DNA of 64,000 nucleotides, taken from positions 12,697 to 76,696 of the forward strand of contig JBDKJD010000003.1 of assembly GCA_039796775.1 (NCBI GenBank). Direction: 5' to 3'. A program made the translations under genes and the position numbers. This stretch comes from Candidatus Parcubacteria bacterium (GTDB taxonomy: Bacteria > Patescibacteriota > Minisyncoccia > Phycocordibacterales > UBA5272). The notes under the pieces were generated by a model, which saw only the letters and a program-made list of their open reading frames with translations, was not told the origin of the DNA and ran no database searches. Below, in pieces: positions 6,804-59,953 of this stretch. How positions within the stretch are numbered: position 1 is the stretch's first letter; each line of letters begins with the position of its first letter.

Positions 6804-6959
6804 ATGCTCAAAGCCGATAAAAAATGTATTGTATGTAAAGTGGATCTCAACACTCAAAAGAGTTTCCAGGAACGTGAAGACTGGGAATCAGTGAAGTTCT
6901 GTAGTAGCAAGTGCAGAAAAGCTGCAGCTAGCCGTCCGACATTTAAAAAGAGGCGGTAA
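6804..6959 (+). CDS. DUF2256-type zinc-ribbon protein (51 aa)
   Basis: CIVCKVD...FCSSKCRKAA pattern; only the C-terminal part of track ORF 6639..6959 is considered coding. Confidence 0.5.
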   Translation: MLKADKKCIVCKVDLNTQKSFQEREDWESVKFCSSKCRKAAASRPTFKKRR

Positions 6960-7017
6960 GATGCTGCCGAATGAAAAACCTTCCCCTTTGGGGGAAGGTT
7001 TTTCATTCGGCAGCATC
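6960..7017. terminator. bidirectional terminator, 26-bp perfect stem hairpin
   Basis: gatgctgccgaatgaaaaaccttccc-ctttg-gggaaggtttttcattcggcagcatc between convergent genes. Confidence 0.7.
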
Positions 7018-7056
7018 TCTTCTATCTACACAATACCCCCTGAGAAGATTTCTTGT

Positions 7057-7476
7057 CTAATACTTCTTAAGCCACTCATTCATTATCTTAATCTCACTCT
7101 CTTGAGCAGTAATAATATCTTGGGCGAACTTTCTTAATTCAGAACTTATTGTTTTATCCTCCAACAAAAGCTTCGCCATATCCACCGCCCCTTGATGATG
7201 AGGAATCATATCTGTGATAAATGCTTTCTCTAATTCCTTGCCACTTTTGCCACGCATATTAGCGAGCATATCCATCATCATGCCTTCCACGCTTCCACCG
7301 TGATTCATCATCATAGATTCATCCCCCATGCGATGCATCATCATAGATTTTTTACCTTCTTTGTAATCTCCATCTCTATCAAAACACATATTCCACACAC
7401 AGCAAATGAATAAACCGAGCACAACAATGGAGAGTCCAATAGTTGTATATTTGTAATTAATATTTTTGAAAATCAT
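7057..7476 (-). CDS. DUF305 family protein with N-terminal TM anchor and Met/His-rich segment
   Basis: MIPHHQGAVDMAK DUF305 motif; MMMH/MMMN repeats. Confidence 0.6.
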   Translation of the reverse strand: MIFKNINYKYTTIGLSIVVLGLFICCVWNMCFDRDGDYKEGKKSMMMHRMGDESMMMNHGGSVEGMMMDMLANMRGKSGKELEKAFITDMIPHHQGAVDMAKLLLEDKTISSELRKFAQDIITAQESEIKIMNEWLKKY

Positions 7477-7507
7477 ATAATGAAAATACTTAATGATAAT
7501 AAATCAA

Positions 7508-7975
7508 TCAATGCGTATGTGACGCACCCAAAAGTAACGTATCAATCAAAAACACAGAAGTTATAACTATAACAAAAGCAATAAGACTCACAACAACAAT
7601 ACTCTTACGACTAAGAATATATTTTTCTTTAATAAAGAAAGTAATATACGCCAGAACTAAACCAATACCAAGAAGCATGCCAGCGTATCCTGGATTATCT
7701 AAATAGTGCTGTATACCACCAGATAAAAATCCTGTTCCAAAGGAGAGCCCTGTAACAAGAAGTATATACTTCATATCCACCGCCTGATTTTTCTCCCTTG
7801 CTTCATAGATACTTCCCGTAATCATAAGAATAAGTCCTATACATCCAAGAATTACATAACGAATTGCATCAGCTTCTAGTGTACCAACATGTACTACAGA
7901 CCCAGCAATGAGAGCGACACCAAGATATTTGGCGATATAAATAGAGTAGTCCCTATGTTCTTTTGAAAGTGTCAT
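7508..7975 (-). CDS. hypothetical 4-TM membrane protein
   Basis: Hydrophobic profile only. Confidence 0.4.
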   Translation of the reverse strand: MTLSKEHRDYSIYIAKYLGVALIAGSVVHVGTLEADAIRYVILGCIGLILMITGSIYEAREKNQAVDMKYILLVTGLSFGTGFLSGGIQHYLDNPGYAGMLLGIGLVLAYITFFIKEKYILSRKSIVVVSLIAFVIVITSVFLIDTLLLGASHTH

Positions 7976-8002
7976 ATCGATACTGATAACTCTGTTTGCT
8001 TT

Positions 8003-8221
8003 TTACCTCATTCTAACCGTAATTAACTCACCACTCTTTGTAGTAAATTTACCAAAGAGAATCATAATAAAGTCAATCATCACCCATATACCAAAACCAC
8101 CGAATGTTACAACCATAAGAATACCTGTTCCTATCTTTCTGTTATAGAACCTGTGGACACCCAAGAACCCTAAAAAGAAACATAGCAGGAGCGTTATCAT
8201 CCACTCTATATTTATTTTCAT
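8003..8221 (-). CDS. TM2 domain-containing small membrane protein
   Basis: GVHRFY motif characteristic of TM2 domain. Confidence 0.5.
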   Translation of the reverse strand: MKINIEWMITLLLCFFLGFLGVHRFYNRKIGTGILMVVTFGGFGIWVMIDFIMILFGKFTTKSGELITVRMR

Positions 8222-8369
8222 ATCACTAATAATCGCATCAGTCTTATTAACTTATTCGTTATTTAGTAAAATACTTGTTTGATTTGTTTCCATAGTCTTA
8301 TCTACTATATAACCATATCATTGATAATTAAAGCACAACTCTTCATAGAAAGATTTTTTGATTAAAAAA

Positions 8370-9761
8370 TTATTGAGTAATTCTTATCTCTTCCATACTA
8401 ACCGTTCTACCATTTGAGGTGTCAACAAGAATAACTTTCATTGTTAAACCCTCCTTATATTCATAAGGTTTTGTTATTGTTATCTTACCATTACGCCCTG
8501 AGAATCTATACGCTGCACCTCCTGGAGCCCAAGGATTAACGCGGGCATTGTAATAAGACTCTGCAGCTAAGCCAACAAGTGATATATTGTTACCTGAGTA
8601 ACCGTCGCCGTTTCTTGCGATCTCTGTTGGCTCTAATTGAAGTTCATACTGTTTCGCGTAATTATCAATACTATAGTCAAGAACGGCTTGAGTATAATAG
8701 CCCCCAGCATCATATATCGACTGAACAAGATTAAAAGAAAGTTTTGGCGTTGGTTTAAAAATTATATTTTCAATAATGACTGAAGTTTTATTACCAAGAG
8801 AATCATAAAGCGCTACACTCACATTCCCGTTATACTCGCCCAAAAACTTTCCTGTAAAACTAATCACCCCAGGACTCTTGTATGTCCTACTCTGCGCAAT
8901 AACTTCATCACCATCCACCTTCCAATTAGCGACTATTTTACCTACTGTGTCTAAGTTCTGACCATAAATAGTAATATAGTAAATACCATTATCTTCTTTT
9001 GAAAACGTTCCATAAGAAGCTGATGGTTTAACCTGTACAGAATTTTGACCATTAACTTCTTCAACTAAAAGATTGCCTGTTGTCTCAGAAAAACCATCTT
9101 CAGAAACTACAGTTATTTTAAGAAACTTACCAATATACTTTTGGGGCGTTGTAACGACTATTGTATTCTGAGCTTTTAAGACAAAATTGCTTTGCTGTTG
9201 TTCTTCACTTGTGGCATCTGTCTTAATAACAACTTTTACTACTTTATTCATTCTCTCCCCAAGAAGAATCGTCTTATATACTCCTGTGAGAGGATCGTAT
9301 TCTTGCTTGACAGCTCTAAGTGAAGGGTTGCCCCCTAAAGGAAAGTTAAGGACCGGTACAGATGACGGAGTTACTGTACTTGGATAAGATGGGTTTGTAT
9401 ATTGTGGTGACGATATTTCGTTTGAACATGTCTCTTTTTGTATCACTTTCCTTGTGATTGAACCAACGCTTCCTGTTGGACTAATTCCGTTTGCAGTCTG
9501 GTATTTTCTAACCCCTGCAACAGTTAAGCGACCGTAAAACCCAGTCGCAGATCCCGATATTATTCCTTTCTCTATCAAAAACTCTTGAAGAGCCGAGACT
9601 TCATTATTAGAGTTACTATCTCTTGACCCAAGACGAAGAACTGGGGTTGTTATAATGAGGCAAGAATCTTCATAAACTTCATCTCCTTGATTTTGGGCAT
9701 AGGAATAACCTCCAAAGCTTAATGAGATTAGGGATAGTAGTAAAAGTTTTTTTATTGTCAT
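8370..9761 (-). CDS. secreted peptidoglycan-binding domain protein (paralog of 5390..6577 in N-terminal region)
   Basis: Signal peptide MTIKKLLLLSLISLSFGGYSYA; EVSALQEFLIEKGII...FYGRLTVAGVRKYQ PG-binding motif. Confidence 0.6.
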   Translation of the reverse strand: MTIKKLLLLSLISLSFGGYSYAQNQGDEVYEDSCLIITTPVLRLGSRDSNSNNEVSALQEFLIEKGIISGSATGFYGRLTVAGVRKYQTANGISPTGSVGSITRKVIQKETCSNEISSPQYTNPSYPSTVTPSSVPVLNFPLGGNPSLRAVKQEYDPLTGVYKTILLGERMNKVVKVVIKTDATSEEQQQSNFVLKAQNTIVVTTPQKYIGKFLKITVVSEDGFSETTGNLLVEEVNGQNSVQVKPSASYGTFSKEDNGIYYITIYGQNLDTVGKIVANWKVDGDEVIAQSRTYKSPGVISFTGKFLGEYNGNVSVALYDSLGNKTSVIIENIIFKPTPKLSFNLVQSIYDAGGYYTQAVLDYSIDNYAKQYELQLEPTEIARNGDGYSGNNISLVGLAAESYYNARVNPWAPGGAAYRFSGRNGKITITKPYEYKEGLTMKVILVDTSNGRTVSMEEIRITQ

Positions 9762-9781
9762 ATATTATAATTAATAAAATA

Positions 9782-9812
9782 ATTATACACGCACACCCCC
9801 CCCCATTATCAA
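9782..9812 (-). promoter_or_regulatory. candidate phase-variable sigma70 promoter: -35 TTGATA, 19-nt spacer containing a G9 homopolymer (C9 on plus, 9796..9804), -10 TATAAT
   Basis: Read on minus strand: TTGATAatgGGGGGGGGtgtgcgtgTATAAT about 20 nt upstream of ATG 9761. Confidence 0.5.
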
Positions 9813-9823
9813 AATAAAGATAA

Positions 9824-10309
9824 CTATCTAAATGCAATAACTGTGATATTGTCTTCCTCCTTGGTAACACTCGGATCAGTTTGATAGAAATGATACGCTT
9901 CTTTGATATTCGGATAGTCTTTCATAATCTTCGGCCATATATCCTTAAACTGAGAGTAGCCTCCTTTCATGATATATGAAATAAAATCCCCGCTTACTTT
10001 CATATCGCCATCTTTATGAGCAAGACCGATACGTCCGAATCCGAACATTTTTGGCTCCTCAATCATGCCGATATTCCAGTCTATCGCGTTACCATTCTTA
10101 ACAAAGTCACTCTTAAGAGATTCATATCTCCCTTTTGTCATGGGCATCCAAAAGAAGAAAAGCATCTTCTTAGTAATGAAGCTCGCATCTATATGATGCA
10201 TAGCATAACCATCCTTGATATCTGATTGTGTATACATAAGTATGTGAGAAAAAGTTTTATACTCTACATTATCTAGTCCCCTTAGGTAAGGACTGGCACG
10301 CAACACCAT
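9824..10309 (-). CDS. hypothetical protein
   Basis: ORF only; start uncertain (overlaps next gene by 41 nt). Confidence 0.3.
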   Translation of the reverse strand: MVLRASPYLRGLDNVEYKTFSHILMYTQSDIKDGYAMHHIDASFITKKMLFFFWMPMTKGRYESLKSDFVKNGNAIDWNIGMIEEPKMFGFGRIGLAHKDGDMKVSGDFISYIMKGGYSQFKDIWPKIMKDYPNIKEAYHFYQTDPSVTKEEDNITVIAFR

Positions 10310-10709
10310 CTTTGTTGCCGTCTAATCTATTAGTATCCTCTGATACCCCTCCTGCGTTATCGAAGAATTCTTGCGCGTCACCTTGTGTCTTGAAGTCATC
10401 ACAATTGTACTCGTCTGTATACTTGGCATTAGCTGCTTCTTTGGTTCCTGCTTGTACAATATTCCCTTTATTGTCACGAAGCACACGTGACTCACTGATG
10501 CTCTTAGTCTCCATCATCTTATCAAGATCGTAATCAGTATTAGCAACTTCAAGACCAAGTGCTCCCACAAGAAGGGCTAAGATAACACCGATCACAGCCT
10601 TGGCCCATGTAGTCTTGGCAGTGAAGAATAACACCCCCGCAAGTACAATAAGACCACCGATTACCCATAGTCTCACTTTTTTAGAATTACGCATTTCTTG
10701 TATTTTCAT
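10269..10709 (-). CDS. membrane-anchored Excalibur (Ca-binding) domain protein
   Basis: N-terminal TM; C-terminal DGNKDGVACQ Excalibur-like motif. Confidence 0.5.
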   Translation of the reverse strand: MKIQEMRNSKKVRLWVIGGLIVLAGVLFFTAKTTWAKAVIGVILALLVGALGLEVANTDYDLDKMMETKSISESRVLRDNKGNIVQAGTKEAANAKYTDEYNCDDFKTQGDAQEFFDNAGGVSEDTNRLDGNKDGVACQSLPKGTR

Positions 10710-10755
10710 ATATTTGAAAGTATAACACTAAGAGAATCAATACTTTAATATCTCT

Positions 10756-11313
10756 TTAAAGTTTGGCTGAGTTAAAAAGCACACTAAATGCTTCGCACCA
10801 CACGAGCGCATATTGATACTCTTCGATATTAATATTCTCTGGTATCTTATAGTTAAAATTACCACTTGTTGCCTTAAGTGCCCCAAGATTCACGAAATCT
10901 TTTGCTTCTAAATCCTTAGCCAAATAAACTACCAAATCAGGACCGTTGATAGTGCTAAAGTCTTCATAGCGAAGATACTTCGTATCTCCTTCGCTCACCA
11001 GTCTCACATAACCAGATGCTGGATGTGTCTTGGTTGGTACTATCGCACTTCTGGCTATCTGAGGCGAGACTGCGATATCTTGGGCTGATACAGATTGAGA
11101 CGTAGACGATGCTTTCATCTCTTCTTTGGATTCAGTTGCTTCCACTAATTGAGATGTGGTAGATACTACTTCTTTTTTATTGTCTATATTTACTTCTACA
11201 GGAAGTGCCTCGTCTAAAGATGAGGTTCTTAATTGAGGAAGTATGAATAGATAAAAAGAAACGCCAGCAATAATACATGTGAATAATCCAATGATGTAAT
11301 ATTTTTTGTTCAT
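10756..11313 (-). CDS. DM13 domain protein with N-terminal TM anchor
   Basis: HPASGYVRLV...FSTINGPDLVVYL matches DM13 signature. Confidence 0.5.
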   Translation of the reverse strand: MNKKYYIIGLFTCIIAGVSFYLFILPQLRTSSLDEALPVEVNIDNKKEVVSTTSQLVEATESKEEMKASSTSQSVSAQDIAVSPQIARSAIVPTKTHPASGYVRLVSEGDTKYLRYEDFSTINGPDLVVYLAKDLEAKDFVNLGALKATSGNFNYKIPENINIEEYQYALVWCEAFSVLFNSAKL

Positions 11314-11331
11314 AATATAGCAGTGTTAGAT

Positions 11332-12750
11332 TTAGGAAAATACCCTAAACAAAAAACGAATAATAGCATATGTGCGGCCTGATAACTTGGACCCCATATA
11401 GGTGAGCGCTAGGCGTCTATTGATACGACTCTTAGTTGGATATGGATATACCTTGTTATAGAGAGCCTTAAGCGAAAGATCGTTATAGTGAACGGTGAGC
11501 AAGTCTTGAACAAGCTCGCCTGCGTCTTCTGCTACCATTGTTCCTCCTAAGACATTACCTTCTCCATCGATATATACTTGTAAGAAGCTTCCCTTTTCTC
11601 CATCGGTAACAGATCTATCTTCTTCGTCAAAAGAAAGCATGTGCGCGGTATAAGGAATACTTTGCTCATTAAGTATCATCTCACTCTTACCGAACGTTGC
11701 CACTTCTTTGCTGGTGTAGGTAACCCACGCAAGTGTCGTTGGAGACTTTTTCTTAAAAGGTGAAAGCATATTGTTGATCACTACTTTTGCATGCTCTTCT
11801 GCAACATGGGTGAACATAAACGACCCAGCAATATCTCCTACCGTAACGACATGCGGGTTAGTGGTTTCGAGATATTTATTGATGATAAGCTTACCATTCT
11901 CATCTATCTTGATGCCGGCATTCTCTAAAGCTAAACCTTCACTATTGAGCACTCTTCCGATGCCGACAAAAAGAGCATCTGCTTTCTTAGAAAACTCTTT
12001 ATCGTCCACAGTATAAAAAACATGACCATTCTGTATCTTGATGAGCTTCATGCTATTAACTATCTCTACCCCTTCTTCTTTGAACATACTCTCTACCGCG
12101 TCACTCGCTTCTTGTATCTCTCTCCCGAGCAGCTTCTTATCCGCATTAAGTATTGTCACCTCACTTCCCAAGAATCTAAACGCTTCTGCGAGTTCACATG
12201 ATATCGGCCCACCACCAAGAAAAACGAAATCGTCCGGAAGAGTCTCCAAAGAAAACACTGACTCATTATTAAGAAGCGGCACACTGCCATCATTATCTGC
12301 GAGTGTGAGAGCTCTTGCTCTACTCCCTGTTGCAAGCACACACTTATTAAAGGAATATAACTCATTATTAACGCTAAGCGTTCGTGCGTCAACAAATGAA
12401 GCATCACCGATCACAACATCCATTCCTTTTGATCGTAGATATTCACTATTCTCGTGGAGGCGAATCGCATCTTGCTTGTGACGTATCTCATCTAATACCT
12501 TTTTGAGGTCTGTCTTGCCTGACACTGTATAGCCATAACGACTAGCATCATGCGCTTGTTTAATAGTGCGCGCGGTATGTATGAGAGCCTTACTAGGAAC
12601 ACATCCATAATTAAGACAATCACCGCCGATTGAAGCTTCGCTTTTGTTCACAAGAAGTACAGAGAGTCCGACTCGTGCGAAAAATGAAGAGACATTTAAT
12701 CCGCCTGACCCAGCTCCTATAATGATGATGTCATAATGTTTTTTGTTCAT
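11332..12750 (-). CDS. FAD-dependent pyridine nucleotide-disulfide oxidoreductase (dihydrolipoamide dehydrogenase/mercuric reductase-like)
   Basis: IIIIGAGSGG FAD motif; GGDCLNYGCVPSK redox-active disulfide. Confidence 0.75.
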   Translation of the reverse strand: MNKKHYDIIIIGAGSGGLNVSSFFARVGLSVLLVNKSEASIGGDCLNYGCVPSKALIHTARTIKQAHDASRYGYTVSGKTDLKKVLDEIRHKQDAIRLHENSEYLRSKGMDVVIGDASFVDARTLSVNNELYSFNKCVLATGSRARALTLADNDGSVPLLNNESVFSLETLPDDFVFLGGGPISCELAEAFRFLGSEVTILNADKKLLGREIQEASDAVESMFKEEGVEIVNSMKLIKIQNGHVFYTVDDKEFSKKADALFVGIGRVLNSEGLALENAGIKIDENGKLIINKYLETTNPHVVTVGDIAGSFMFTHVAEEHAKVVINNMLSPFKKKSPTTLAWVTYTSKEVATFGKSEMILNEQSIPYTAHMLSFDEEDRSVTDGEKGSFLQVYIDGEGNVLGGTMVAEDAGELVQDLLTVHYNDLSLKALYNKVYPYPTKSRINRRLALTYMGSKLSGRTYAIIRFLFRVFS

Positions 12751-12760
12751 AGTGATTATT

Positions 12761-13300
12761 TTATATTTTGAATTTCTTGCCGATTAATACTAGTCCTGCT
12801 ATCGCTATTACAGCAAGCGCAATATTGATGGGGCTCAGCATCGCAAGTGATTCTCCAAAATACACAAAAGCGAATGTCCCTGGGATAATCCCTATACTCG
12901 TCCCTATCATATAATCTCGTGTAGACACTCTCGTAACCCCGAGCAAATAGTTAAGAGCATTGAACGGGAAAAGCGGAATAAGTCTTAAGAGGAGAACAGT
13001 CTTCATCCCTTCCTTAAAAAATTTCTCTTCATAGGTTTCGAGCTTTTTGTACTTACTGAGCAAATGCTTGGCCACATACCCCCTCATCACATATCTCGCA
13101 ATCAAAAAAGCAAAGGTCGCGCCTACAATATTCCCCACAAGAGAAATCAGTGTGCCGTACCACACTCCGAATGTCGCTCCAGCCAAAAGTGTGAGCGGAG
13201 TCCCCGGCAAGAACGCGATTGCTCCTATCACTTTTCCTACTATCAAGATAAGGGCTGCGTAGTGCGGATATTCGGCAACTAAAAGTTGTAATGTTTCCAT
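12761..13300 (-). CDS. DedA/SNARE-associated (TVP38) family membrane protein
   Basis: LRLIPLFPFNALNYLLGVT conserved DedA motif. Confidence 0.7.
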   Translation of the reverse strand: METLQLLVAEYPHYAALILIVGKVIGAIAFLPGTPLTLLAGATFGVWYGTLISLVGNIVGATFAFLIARYVMRGYVAKHLLSKYKKLETYEEKFFKEGMKTVLLLRLIPLFPFNALNYLLGVTRVSTRDYMIGTSIGIIPGTFAFVYFGESLAMLSPINIALAVIAIAGLVLIGKKFKI

Positions 13301-13352
13301 GGTGTTATATTTTCTTGTTTTGTTTCATTCTTCTATATAAATACTTTTATTA

Positions 13353-14513
13353 TTATTGAAGCAAGGAAACATACTCGCCGTATCCTTCCTTTTCCATATC
13401 TTTAAGGGGAATAAAAAGGAGTGATGCACTATTCATGCAATATCTCATACCTCCTCTATCCTTCGGTCCATCATTAAAGACATGACCCAAGTGCGAGTCT
13501 GCAATAGCGCTTCTCACTTCCGTTCGAACTGAGAATAATTCTCTATCTTCATGGAGAGTTACACTACTTGGAGTAATAGACGTCGTGAATGATGGCCAGC
13601 CGGTTCCGGAGTCATATTTGTCTTTTGATAAAAATAGCGGTTCTTTGCTTACTATGTCGACATAGATTCCTATCTCTTTATTGTCATGATACTTGTTATC
13701 AAAGGGTCGCTCTGTACCATCTTCTTGAGTTACTTTGTACTCTATAGGTGACAACTCTTTTAATCTCGCTACTTTTTGTTCTTGAGAAAATGTTTTCCAA
13801 GAAGAAGTAGCGCTCGTGTTAGTTGTGTTAGCTGTGTCGCCGAATATTTCTATAATGCTCGGGTCTTTCTTCTCCCAATGAATACGAATGAATTGATTGC
13901 GACCACTCGCTTCTCTATACCCACCATATCTCACGGGATTCTTATCTTTATAATCCTGATGATATTCTTCGGCTGGGTAGAAGTTGGTAAACGGTAGCAC
14001 GACGACTGCTACTTTTTTGTCGAACTTCTTACTGCCGTCAATCTTGGTAATAACGGCTTCGGCTTTTGACTTCTGAGCTTCATCTGTGTAATAAATAGCA
14101 GGAGTGTACTGATACCCACGATCACCGAACTGTCCTTCACCATCTGTTGGATCAATATGCTTAAAATACAGCGAGAGCACCTGTAGCGTAGAAATAATAC
14201 TCTCATCGTAGATAACCTCCACCGCTTCACGTGCTTTCACCTCTCCGCTCCCTACTTCTTGATAACGAGGATTCTCCTTCTCGCTATCAGCATATCCAGA
14301 AATAGCAGAGATAACTCCACGATAATGATTGAACTCGGCTTCTGTGCACCAGAAGCAACCACCTGCTAAAACTATTTTTGAATAATTCTTATTATCGCTG
14401 AGTGTTGTATCGGGTGTATGTAATGGGGAAGTGTTTCTCATATACCAATTATACAGAACAAATGTAATAACAACACTTAGTAAGAAAATAGAGATGCGCA
14501 TTGTTGTGGTCAT
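13353..14513 (-). CDS. msrAB: bifunctional peptide methionine sulfoxide reductase MsrA/MsrB
   Basis: GGCFWC (MsrA) and RYCMNSASL (MsrB) motifs. Confidence 0.8.
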
Positions 14514-14583
14514 AGCTTTAATACCATAGTAACATAACTTCTATGTGGTCATAGCTTTAATACCATAGTAACATAACTTCTAT
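14506..14583. repeat. perfect 39-bp tandem duplication spanning msrAB start codon and 5' UTR
   Basis: gtggtcatagctttaataccatagtaacataacttctat x2. Confidence 0.8.
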
Positions 14584-15984: not shown

Positions 15985-16016
15985 AAGGGCAGTAATTGGT
16001 TATTAGTAATTGGTTA

Positions 16017-16534
16017 TTAGTTTAACACAAGCGAAATAACTTCATCTGTTAGCTCCTCTTTAGTTTTTCCTTCGACCTTGATGGTTGTCCCGATCTCTTT
16101 AAGTACTTCGTCTATGAGCGGCTGGACATTGTTATTAAACTTCTTGAGCCGTTCTTCTTGAGAAGAACCATCATGAATAAACACTTCTCGACCTCGTGCG
16201 TTAAGACGTTCGAGCACCAAATGATCCGGTGCGGAAAAATGAATAACACTAAACGATAATGTGAGTTTTTTCATATCATTAAACGATCTAGAAGTATACG
16301 GGTTACCACTTACTATCACTAACTTTCTACCTGATAGCTCAGCAAGTAACGAATAGACCTTATCTCGTGTCTCTTGGTAGAACCCCTCATCGCCAACCTC
16401 CTTTTGAAACTCTTTAAGAAGCGTGCTAAAAGAATAATATTCTATGTGCTCGTACAAGGATGCCAAGTGCCCCCCCCTACAGTCGTTTTTCCGCTTCCTG
16501 GCTTACCTATTAACCACACTAACCCTGTTTTCAT
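16017..16534 (-). pseudogene. P-loop nucleotide kinase-like gene interrupted by frameshift in G8 homopolymer (16470..16477)
   Basis: Upstream ATG 16534 encodes MKTGLVWLIGKPGSGKTTV (Walker A) then hits G8 tract. Frame stops 11 codons later. Downstream track ORF (TTG start) continues ASLYEHIEYY... to 16017. One extra G would fuse both into about 172 aa. Confidence 0.55.
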
Positions 16535-19724: not shown

Positions 19725-19954
19725 AAAATTTTTATTATGCAAATAAGAGAGTTCTAATAAATTTTGATCACGACCAATGATCAGTACTCTCTATGCATAA
19801 GTATGACATTCATACATAGACACACAAGTATAATTAAAATTATTTCTGTGGATAACTTACTAAAAATATTTTTATTGTCATGTTTCGTTTATGCAAATGC
19901 GAAGAAGTCGCAAAAATAGTTGCTAGTTACTAGTTTGTAGTTAATAGATAATAC

Positions 19955-19986
19955 AAGAACTGGCACCCCAATGGGTGCCAGTTCTT
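19955..19986 (-). terminator. GC-core hairpin (aagaactggcacccca-atgggtgccagttctt) downstream of SET gene
   Basis: Perfect 13-bp stem; core motif also at 6626..6648. Confidence 0.5.
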
Positions 19987-20011
19987 GCTAGTAACCAGTA
20001 ACTAGTAACAA

Positions 20012-20566
20012 TTAACTAGCGGCCATTGCTCCGTAGCTGTGCTTCTTGGCTGTGCATCTACATCCATATGGCGCAATATGTTCCTTTACGAATTCTTCTC
20101 CGTAATCATAAACAATTTCATCGCCCTCTTTGATATTTTTGATAGCACGTATAAAGACACGACCCTTTTTAATTTCACTTTCTGCGTTAGCTGCCTCCTC
20201 ACACGCATGATTACAGTAGCGCGCAATATTCCATCTTGGAGTACCGTCAATTGTTCTATTACGTGTAACTTCGAAGAGATACTGACTTGTTGCTTTTTTG
20301 TCAGCTTGTTCTTTGTTAAGAATCTCTCCGATGTATTCAATGATGAGTTCCCCTTTCTTGATATCTTCACCTGCGAAGAGACCTAAGCCTGCTAAGCCGC
20401 GCTTTGCTTTTACTTTTTTAAAATGATGATCCGGCAACTTTTCTGTTACTTCTTTTGTTGTCCCTTTTTTTGACACAGTCTTTGCAACTTTCTTTGTAAT
20501 CTTTTTCTCTACTTCCTGTGAGAGCTTTCCTCCTTTCTTTAAAATCTTTGATTGTTTATCTAACAT
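20012..20566 (-). CDS. SET-domain protein lysine methyltransferase with Lys-rich N-terminal tail
   Basis: GLGLFAGEDIKKGELIIEYIGEIL, RYCNHACEEAANAE, DEIVYDYGEEF, post-SET CRC. Confidence 0.7.
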   Translation of the reverse strand: MLDKQSKILKKGGKLSQEVEKKITKKVAKTVSKKGTTKEVTEKLPDHHFKKVKAKRGLAGLGLFAGEDIKKGELIIEYIGEILNKEQADKKATSQYLFEVTRNRTIDGTPRWNIARYCNHACEEAANAESEIKKGRVFIRAIKNIKEGDEIVYDYGEEFVKEHIAPYGCRCTAKKHSYGAMAAS

Positions 20567-27778: not shown

Positions 27779-28223
27779 AGAAAAACAGCGCTTACTGCGC
27801 TGTTTTTTAATTCCCTCAATCTTGGGGGAAAATTTCAAGGTATGGTTTAAACATTTCACCGGAGGCGTACGCTTCAAGCGTGACGCCTCCAAAAACGACA
27901 GGGTAGCTTAGATCTGGTTGTTTAGATTCTTTAAACACCTGTCCTCCATAAAACCATCTATTTCCTTTTTTGAAAAATTTTGCAGCCCCTATAAAAAAGT
28001 TGTAGGATTTTCAGGTTTTGACACGTATACAGAATCATAAGAGTGACCACAATTTGGACCAGAATGATATTTGACAGACTCTAAAACAACACCGTTATCT
28101 ACATTTATTCCAATCGAAAGAACAGGGAAATTGGTGTCACCAATTTTTTTTGAAAATGCTGCAACAATAGTTATAGTACCCCTTTTTGATTAAAAGCAAA
28201 CAGCTAAAGGCTAATAGCTACCC

Positions 28224-34177: not shown

Positions 34178-34442
34178 ACCGAGATGGTTATTAGGTGTTA
34201 GTTATTAGTGATTAGACAATACAAAATACTAAAATGTTTTTGTAGAAAAATATGAAGCGGTACTGTACCGCTTAGATAGGGAATATTATAACACAATTTC
34301 TCTAAAAAAGCTAGCCCGTTTTCTTTTCTTCATATGCTAGAATTCTTATGTAAGAGCATTCTTGTTGGAATCACGATAAACAACAAGTTCTACCCCACTT
34401 ACCGGTGAGGCTTTAGTTTGCAAACTAAAGAAAAATGTTCGA

Positions 34443-44820: not shown

Positions 44821-44980
44821 AATCCTAGAAGCATACTAAAAAAATAACATGAAACAAAGTGATATATCTATTTCTGGTTCGCAACGACGAGACTCCCATA
44901 GCGAGGGGGGGTATTACCTGTATCTTGTTTAATACTCTCTCGGAAAATATGATATAATCTTCCGATCAGAAAAGATATCT

Positions 44981-45296: not shown

Positions 45297-45330
45297 TTGC
45301 ATCTAACTACTAACTACAGTCTAGTGACTA

Positions 45331-45621
45331 CTAACTATTAGAAGCCTTCTCGTGGTACTCTTCTTCCTCCCCCTCCTTCTTCTCAGCGAATAACTTAGGC
45401 ACCCTCTTATACTCTTTTTTCTTCTCAACAAAAAAGTACACAACAGGCCCAATGACAGGCACACCAACAATGAGTACAACCCAAAGGAATCTATCCATCT
45501 TCGCAGCGTCAACTACCATCCAAAGAGTGAACGCAATTGCGAGCACGTAACATGCATACACAACAAAGGAAAGTAGCGCCCACACCAGAAGTCCCACAAA
45601 CATCATTGTTCCTGTAATCAT
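45331..45621 (-). CDS. PLDc_N-like small membrane protein with acidic C-terminal tail
   Basis: WMVVDAAKMDRFLWVVLIVGVPVIGPVVYFFV pattern. Confidence 0.45.
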   Translation of the reverse strand: MITGTMMFVGLLVWALLSFVVYACYVLAIAFTLWMVVDAAKMDRFLWVVLIVGVPVIGPVVYFFVEKKKEYKRVPKLFAEKKEGEEEEYHEKASNS

Positions 45622-46539: not shown

Positions 46540-46579
46540 AGGTTGGTAAGTTAGTTTGTTAGTGATTAGCGGTTAGCGG

Positions 46580-46939
46580 TCATTCTTTATTTATTAGTGT
46601 AGCAATAAGTTTATTTAGCATTTTAGCAATTTCTTCAATAAGCAATTCGTGTTGAAGTAAATTTTCTTCTTTAACAAACCCTAATCTTTTAGTAATAACT
46701 ACTTGAGTCTCGAGTTCAGAAAGAGACGCATAAGCTATTCTCAGGAACTGAACATACTCTTTTGTGTGTTTTCTTGAGAACCCTTCTGCGATATTTGAGG
46801 GGATTGATATCACAGACCTTCTCATCTGACTTGTTAAACCAAATAATTCTGTTTGAGGAAAAGAACTAGTGACTAAATAAATCTTTTCTACAAGGTCTAT
46901 ACTTTTTTGCCACACAATAAGTTCTTTATATGACTTCAT
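46580..46939 (-). CDS. four-helix-bundle protein (23S rRNA intervening-sequence protein family)
   Basis: KSYKELIVWQKSIDL...GLTSQMRRSVISIPSNIAEGFSR...ASLSELETQ signature. Confidence 0.7.
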   Translation of the reverse strand: MKSYKELIVWQKSIDLVEKIYLVTSSFPQTELFGLTSQMRRSVISIPSNIAEGFSRKHTKEYVQFLRIAYASLSELETQVVITKRLGFVKEENLLQHELLIEEIAKMLNKLIATLINKE

Positions 46940-59780: not shown

Positions 59781-59802
59781 GACTGTAATTATACCATAGT
59801 TT

Positions 59803-59851
59803 AAAGCTTAAAGCTTATAGCTTATAGCTTATAGCTTATAGCTTATAGCTT
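59803..59851. repeat. 7-bp tandem repeat (aaagctt x2 + atagctt x5)
   Basis: Seen directly; lies 23 nt upstream of pheS start codon. Confidence 0.9.
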
Positions 59852-59953
59852 AGAAAAAGTGTAAGCCTGATTCGCGAATAAATTAAATGTGTATAAATGT
59901 ATCTGTATTACCATATTCTACGTTCTATACTCTACATTCTGTACCCCTCCTCT

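Follow-up and report, generated by a model that had tools for sequence, protein, structure and literature searches.

The window analysed here, a 64,000-nt stretch of a Parcubacteria contig with 39.05% GC, carries on its minus strand a gene for a predicted secreted protein. The gene is preceded by a 62-nt intergenic gap, from the stop codon of a co-oriented 161-aa ORF to the 463-aa ORF itself, and this gap contains a candidate promoter with a run of nine guanines (G9). Read directly on the minus strand from 9812 to 9782, the promoter consists of TTGATA, AT (9806-9805), G9, TGTGCGTG and TATAAT (Table 1), with G9 making up 9 of the 19 bases between the two hexamers. An earlier note on this DNA had placed the G run inside a -35/-10 spacer, and its account of the tract and the flanking sequence is accurate: the spacer (9806-9788) is indeed 19 nt long, and the distance from TATAAT to the ATG, given as about 20 nt, is exactly that. 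The string printed in the note has its elements in the right order and the wrong number of guanines: 'atg-GGGGGGGGG' contains ten, the true sequence being AT followed by exactly nine.

Table 1. Features of the G9 locus and of a second G tract in the window.
Feature	Position	Strand	Remarks
G9 homopolymer (C9 on the plus strand)	9796..9804	-	about -29 to -21 of the candidate promoter
-35-like hexamer TTGATA	9807..9812	-	5/6 match to TTGACA
Perfect -10 hexamer TATAAT, no TG extension	9782..9787	-	19 nt from TTGATA; 20 nt (9781-9762) before the ATG at 9761
Remainder of spacer, TGTGCGTG	9788..9795	-	direct reading
Alternative -10-like GATAAT	9805..9810	-	16-nt spacer to TTTAGA 9832-9827; promoter scan
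Second TATAAT	9764..9769	-	2 nt before the ATG; direct reading
Downstream gene, 463 aa: signal peptide, PG_binding_1, orphan beta-rich C-terminal ~310 aa	8370..9761	-	MEN9551973.1
Upstream co-oriented gene, 161 aa, weak sub-threshold Bact_hydrolase match	9824..10309	-	profile match
Variable island carrying the gene, ~6.3 kb	6968..13309	.	comparison with relatives' loci
G8 (C8 on the plus strand) in a P-loop kinase-like gene	16470..16477	-	ATG at 16534, gene end 16017

TTGATA/TATAAT is the only good sigma-70-type hexamer pair in the intergenic region. Its 19-nt spacer lies outside the canonical sigma-70 range of 16-18 nt, and a standard scan, restricted to such spacers, omits it. TATAAT is directly preceded by GTG rather than TGn and is hence not an extended -10 element. 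With nine bases, the tract falls in the range (G/C of about 8 or more) in which a homopolymer counts as a candidate phase-variable repeat. The second TATAAT cannot serve the ATG at 9761, because only 2 nt lie between them, against a clade peak of 6-9 nt.

Other roles for the run itself were considered and rejected. A Shine-Dalgarno function of GGGGGTG fails because the downstream GTG codons reach stop codons within 4-11 codons, and a G-quadruplex because one G9 cannot furnish four G runs. Nor is the tract explained by a terminator, a structured RNA or an Rfam family: the terminator scan of the region found no hairpin terminator between the upstream gene and G9, the intergenic RNA folds no better than its shuffles (fold z-score -0.28), and tRNAs were the only matches in an Rfam search of the window, none covering the G9 region. 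As a separate observation, TGTGCGTG and the TATA that follows it form 12 nt of strictly alternating pyrimidines and purines (TGTGCGTGTATA, within 9782-9795), a type of sequence prone to adopt the Z-DNA form.

The gene product is, as the earlier note had it, a signal-peptide protein with a PG-binding domain. By inspection, it starts with a typical Sec signal peptide (MTIKKLLLLSLISLSFGGYSYA, the boundary falling before QN), and PG_binding_1 (PF01471) is found at residues 52-106 (E=1.8e-11); together they predict an envelope or surface protein. NCBI annotates it as 'MAG: putative peptidoglycan binding domain [Candidatus Parcubacteria bacterium]'; the contig is 81 kb long. For its C-terminal part, a search of 1.84 billion representatives gave no homologue: the 6,262 matches are all confined to residues ~4-150, and a homologue search returned nothing above 49% identity over 23% of the protein. 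An AlphaFold model built from the single sequence was unusable (pLDDT 33.5). Many of the matches have a common N-terminal signal and PG-binding module followed by unrelated C-termini, at very different lengths; this joining of a shared module to unrelated ends suggests a wall-anchored family with variable exposed parts. Five homologous PG_binding genes on other CPR contigs have ordinary promoters, with no G/C tract in their upstream regions. In two further loci (L084 534-3910 and L086 1351-5620), genes with the same N-terminal module flank secY within the ribosomal-protein cluster, which hints at a conserved envelope role of the family in other CPR genomes.

The gene resides in a variable island of envelope and redox genes that also encodes DedA-like, pyridine nucleotide-disulphide oxidoreductase, DM13, Excalibur, TM2 and DUF305 proteins besides the 161-aa ORF and the PG_binding protein; a second PG_binding gene lies nearby. 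In the closest genome, L003 (SecA 92% identical), about 380 nt stand in place of the island, and in L087 (kinase 96.5% identical) its place is taken by unrelated genes, such as those for TrmB, FolB and MsrAB. Neither the gene nor its neighbours are present in any of the relatives compared (160 SecA-anchored loci from genomes and metagenomes), and a comparison of orthologous promoters is therefore impossible. An exact look-up of the 161-aa protein found no record either. Gene content is particularly variable at the site between murF and a DUF2256-like ORF. A perfect inverted repeat of 28 nt, with a loop of 4 nt, marks one edge of the variable block; it is located between convergent genes (6959-7018) and probably acts as a bidirectional terminator. 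Altogether, a secreted PG-binding protein with a fast-evolving, orphan C-terminus, encoded in a strain-variable island, belongs to the class of genes that are usually phase-variable.

Since no terminator separates the 161-aa gene from G9, read-through transcription from the upstream genes into 8370..9761 is possible. The extended -10 promoter of the Excalibur gene (exc146), in particular, could give rise to read-through transcripts independent of tract length.

The earlier note was justified in calling a 9-nt G/C run an outlier in this AT-rich genome. For a window of 39% GC, the expected number of runs of at least 9 is 0.05 (iid) or 0.03 (first-order Markov); those of at least 7 nt are only three, C9 at 9796, C8 at 16470 and G7 at 44905. 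We extended the census to 160 SecA-anchored loci of related genomes and metagenomes, some 2.5 Mb including the window, and counted 1259 runs of length 5, 179 of 6, 27 of 7, 3 of 8, 4 of 9 and 1 of 10. Between lengths 5 and 8 the counts drop about 7-fold per extra base; extrapolation of this decay yields ~0.7 runs of at least 9, and 5 are seen (roughly p=1e-3, Poisson). Runs of 6-8 are depleted relative to composition, and those of 9-10 stand above the trend. Four of the five longest lie outside genes, compared with 15% of the sequence being non-coding. Because their counts exceed the decay and most are intergenic, long G runs are a distinct, rare class in the clade. Their excess is consistent with runs being expanded by slippage once a threshold is passed, whether or not selection takes part. 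The hexamers are a different matter: TTGATA-N15-21-TATAAT occurs once in the window (0.20 expected), and at least once in 18 of 100 shuffles. With 18% of shuffles containing one, the pair by itself is weak evidence.

The other long G runs follow no common logic. In L008, G9 stands 23 nt upstream of the secA -10 box, a context without any sense for phase variation. The G10 of L018 (6955-8317) occupies a 31-nt gap between a divergent bAvd-like gene and a reverse transcriptase gene, an arrangement as in a diversity-generating retroelement; directly after it comes a TAGACT box, 7 nt from the reverse transcriptase start codon. L003 has G9 at 2754, an ambiguous position 72 nt upstream of a gene for a weak-fn3 protein and adjoining tRNA-fragment repeats. 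Finally, in L048 an in-frame, coding-strand G9 (2768-2776) is part of a gene for a Wzt-like ABC transporter ATPase of polysaccharide export, potentially a further frameshift switch in a surface-related gene. The repeats of L003 (2480-2730) are three copies of a tRNA 3'-end fragment (GGTCCAAGC...) downstream of a tRNA gene, which suggests remnants of repeated integration at this tRNA.

The second-longest tract of the window, G8, is inside a P-loop kinase-like gene (motif GKPGSGKTT) that adjoins secA directly downstream. The reading frame breaks at G8 and resumes in ORF 16017..16466; either G6 or G9 would restore it. The resulting 172-aa product matches AAA_33 and an SKI-type kinase domain across the junction, and aligns end to end with intact orthologues. 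The orthologue of L087 reads GTG-GGG-GGG-CAT, a G7 in frame, L088 has GTA-GGA-GAG in its place, and L006 has no run. From this comparison, the kinase tract has grown from a GGAGAG-like sequence and has slipped two bases away from the in-frame state. With G8 out of frame here and G7 in frame in L087, G tracts evidently slip in this lineage and do so with a functional consequence, the breaking of the kinase frame; the length change is one between species, not switching within a population. The gene would be one of three things: a pseudogene, a gene in its off phase, or a gene rescued by slippage.

Both tracts recur in a Logan assembly of SRR35185531, which probably derives from the same sample as the window: its contig (L001) has the same G9 in 8.5 kb of 100% identical sequence, and the same G8. 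It is the single further assembly that contains the locus; it corroborates the tract length and is not informative about other populations. No other strain carrying the locus was found in protein, genome or metagenome searches: the exact-protein look-up returned only this identical contig, a protein scan of genome contigs gave no match to the 8370..9761 product, and a metagenome scan with both flanks and a 3-20 nt gap between them gave 0 matches.

How much the spacing would matter depends on the way promoters are built in this organism. Upstream regions in the window typically have TGnTAnAAT elements 6-13 nt before the start codon and no Shine-Dalgarno sequence, and in related loci the -10 box most often lies 6-9 nt from the ATG. 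The secA promoter is kept as TGnTATAAT-N9-ATG in 27 genomes (among L003-L039), with no conserved -35. Both facts indicate that extended -10, near-leaderless promoters predominate in the clade and that their -35 signal is weak or missing; this layout, with TGnTAnAAT only 6-9 nt from the ATG and no Shine-Dalgarno sequence, also implies that most mRNAs are leaderless or nearly so. By sequence, our G9 lies between TTGATA and TATAAT, in a clade that mostly uses extended -10 elements without -35 boxes. Since most promoters are of this kind, control by -35/-10 spacing is doubtful in this organism.

A minority of clade promoters do have a -35 signal: where the TG extension is missing, T is enriched at -35 and -34. 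Among 132 such non-TG promoters, TTGnnn boxes are found in 10 at a 16-nt spacer, in 8 at 17 nt, and in 1 each at 19 and 20 nt. Similarly, 1,255 TATAAT sites have 44 good TTG-type boxes at spacers of 15-21 nt, with 27 at 16-17 nt and 4 at 19, making 19 nt a background frequency in the clade. The earlier note's argument that a spacing shorter than 19 nt would be better agrees with the clade's own promoters. Since TTG-type boxes, where present, lie 16-17 nt from the -10 element, the promoter would be weak with G9 and stronger with G7-G8. Lacking the TG extension, which makes a -35 dispensable, the candidate would belong to the type that needs a -35 box, but at a spacing that the clade does not use. 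Its 20-nt gap between -10 and ATG is atypical as well.

On these grounds, we propose a mechanism by which the tract could act. G9 would be a slippage-prone homopolymer between TTGATA and TATAAT, the only plausible dedicated promoter of 8370..9761; replication slippage would add or remove one or two guanines, so that the unfavourable 19-nt spacer would shrink to 18 or 17 nt or lengthen to 20 nt. The gene would then be transcribed more or less strongly, in a heritable and reversible manner, and the assembled G9 sequence would represent a weak or off state. A phase-variable promoter is plausible here, a reasonable candidate of a known kind, and that tract length tunes or switches this promoter by slippage we regard as a serious possibility, a little short of even. 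The proposal builds on what is observed: the anatomy of the site, the rarity of the tract, the class of the gene, the 16-17 nt spacing in the clade and the length change at the second locus. From these we infer the use of TATAAT, the contribution of the -35 box, the variation of the tract in the population and the action of selection.

A neutral homopolymer is about as likely. In this case the run would be a by-product of slippage in weakly constrained intergenic DNA, and the gene would be transcribed from a -10-only promoter insensitive to spacing or by read-through, a reading we find quite possible although, taken alone, not the probable one. It agrees with the lack of a -35 signal in most clade promoters, with the unterminated upstream genes, with the absence of such tracts from homologous PG_binding genes, and with the long G runs that relatives carry upstream of the essential secA and in other contexts foreign to phase variation; the purging of frameshift-prone runs from genes would also be expected to enrich them between genes. 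It accounts less easily for the depletion of runs of 6-8 next to the surplus of 9-10, and for the position of G9, one of the few in which length could matter, in a promoter devoid of the TG extension typical of -35-independent clade promoters.

Two other explanations are improbable, to different degrees. Transcription could start inside the G run, from TTTAGA-N16-GATAAT, and stuttering on the guanines (reiterative transcription) could lower productive initiation or tune it to nucleotide levels; G addition at the transcription start is known from Bacillus subtilis pyrG. The promoter scan does give this pair (9832-9805, minus strand, 9/12 positions matched), and a start expected ~7 nt downstream of GATAAT would fall within G9. 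Yet GATAAT has neither a T at -12 nor a TG extension, the downstream TATAAT, a perfect match, makes a much better -10 element, and the leader of ~37 nt contrasts with the very short ones preferred in the clade. As the region has fewer promoter-like sites than its shuffles (7 against 12.0 +/- 4.1), matches of the scan are not informative. We judge such a start very unlikely. Even less credible is an artefact of assembly or sequencing in the tract or its length. Homopolymers are error-prone, and the other G tract of the contig breaks a gene; against this, two different assemblies agree base for base on G9 and G8, and widespread frame breaks are not seen in genes that contain A/T runs of 7-8. With the assemblies in agreement and the kinase two bases, not one, from its in-frame state, a consensus error at the kinase tract is unlikely.

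The likeness to Neisseria, Haemophilus and Bordetella, invoked in the earlier note, is an analogy and not evidence. The closest parallel is the poly-G promoter of porA, a finding that reportedly goes back to van der Ende in 1995. There, too, much of the -35/-10 spacer is a G homopolymer, and the gene codes for a secreted or surface protein; here, by contrast, the gene is an orphan without orthologues, the spacing is 2 nt off the optimum, and in this CPR bacterium most promoters do not depend on a -35. In Neisseria meningitidis, gain or loss of one G in the porA spacer alters the transcript level (PMC3899988); variation and expression were both measured in that case, while the present locus is known from sequence only. 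Simple repeats also change the spacing of promoter elements in surface-structure genes of Bordetella pertussis (fim2/fim3, poly-C) and Haemophilus influenzae (hifA/hifB, TA repeats) (PMC3899988), and of Mycoplasma hyorhinis (vlp) (PMC3899988; PMC1891110). These tracts are longer or have other repeat units, and Bordetella employs an activator-binding site; they are experimentally established and recur across strains, whereas we have one tract in one genome. Finally, the poly-G/C contingency loci or 'phasome' of Campylobacter and Helicobacter (PMC8355987) resemble our case in an AT-rich small genome with few long G/C tracts, intergenic and in genes, one of them out of frame. They differ in comprising dozens of tracts with measured switching, as opposed to 2 tracts of at least 8 in 64 kb here and ~2 tracts per Mb in close relatives.

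A full-text literature search returned no report of phase variation for the Candidate Phyla Radiation, a co-mention with Patescibacteria being unrelated; a confirmed case would thus be new for the group, not a new mechanism. CPR bacteria have minimal, regulator-poor genomes, and a life attached to other cells is assumed for many of them. The boldest reading would make this their first contingency locus, with the poly-G tract switching a PG-binding protein stochastically and the second tract toggling a P-loop kinase in a small 'phasome'; we consider it unlikely, though worth stating. Were it true, a tiny, probably host-attached Parcubacteria cell would switch a protein possibly used for attachment to host or self cell wall, and contingency loci would extend beyond animal-associated pathogens. 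If CPR bacteria vary envelope proteins through hypermutable repeats, their clonal, regulator-poor populations could hedge in this way against pressure from hosts and phages. An invariant tract would be no more than an ordinary, rare homopolymer without consequence.

Other repeats were noticed near promoters of the window. Gene 13353..14513 has an exact tandem duplication of 39 nt (14505-14583) that takes in its first codons (ATGACCACA) as well as its extended -10 promoter. Directly upstream of many start codons or promoters, there are arrays with a period of 7 nt (or 14 nt), of the type CTAAnnn or (C)AGTAAC and with 3-8 units: 59796-59852, 45303-45337, 46558-46580, 34187-34215, 19917-20019, 28191-28220 and 15991-16021. 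We know of no described element to which they would correspond. The array before murF keeps its position in five relatives (L087, L088, L094, L003 and L004), even where the upstream gene differs.
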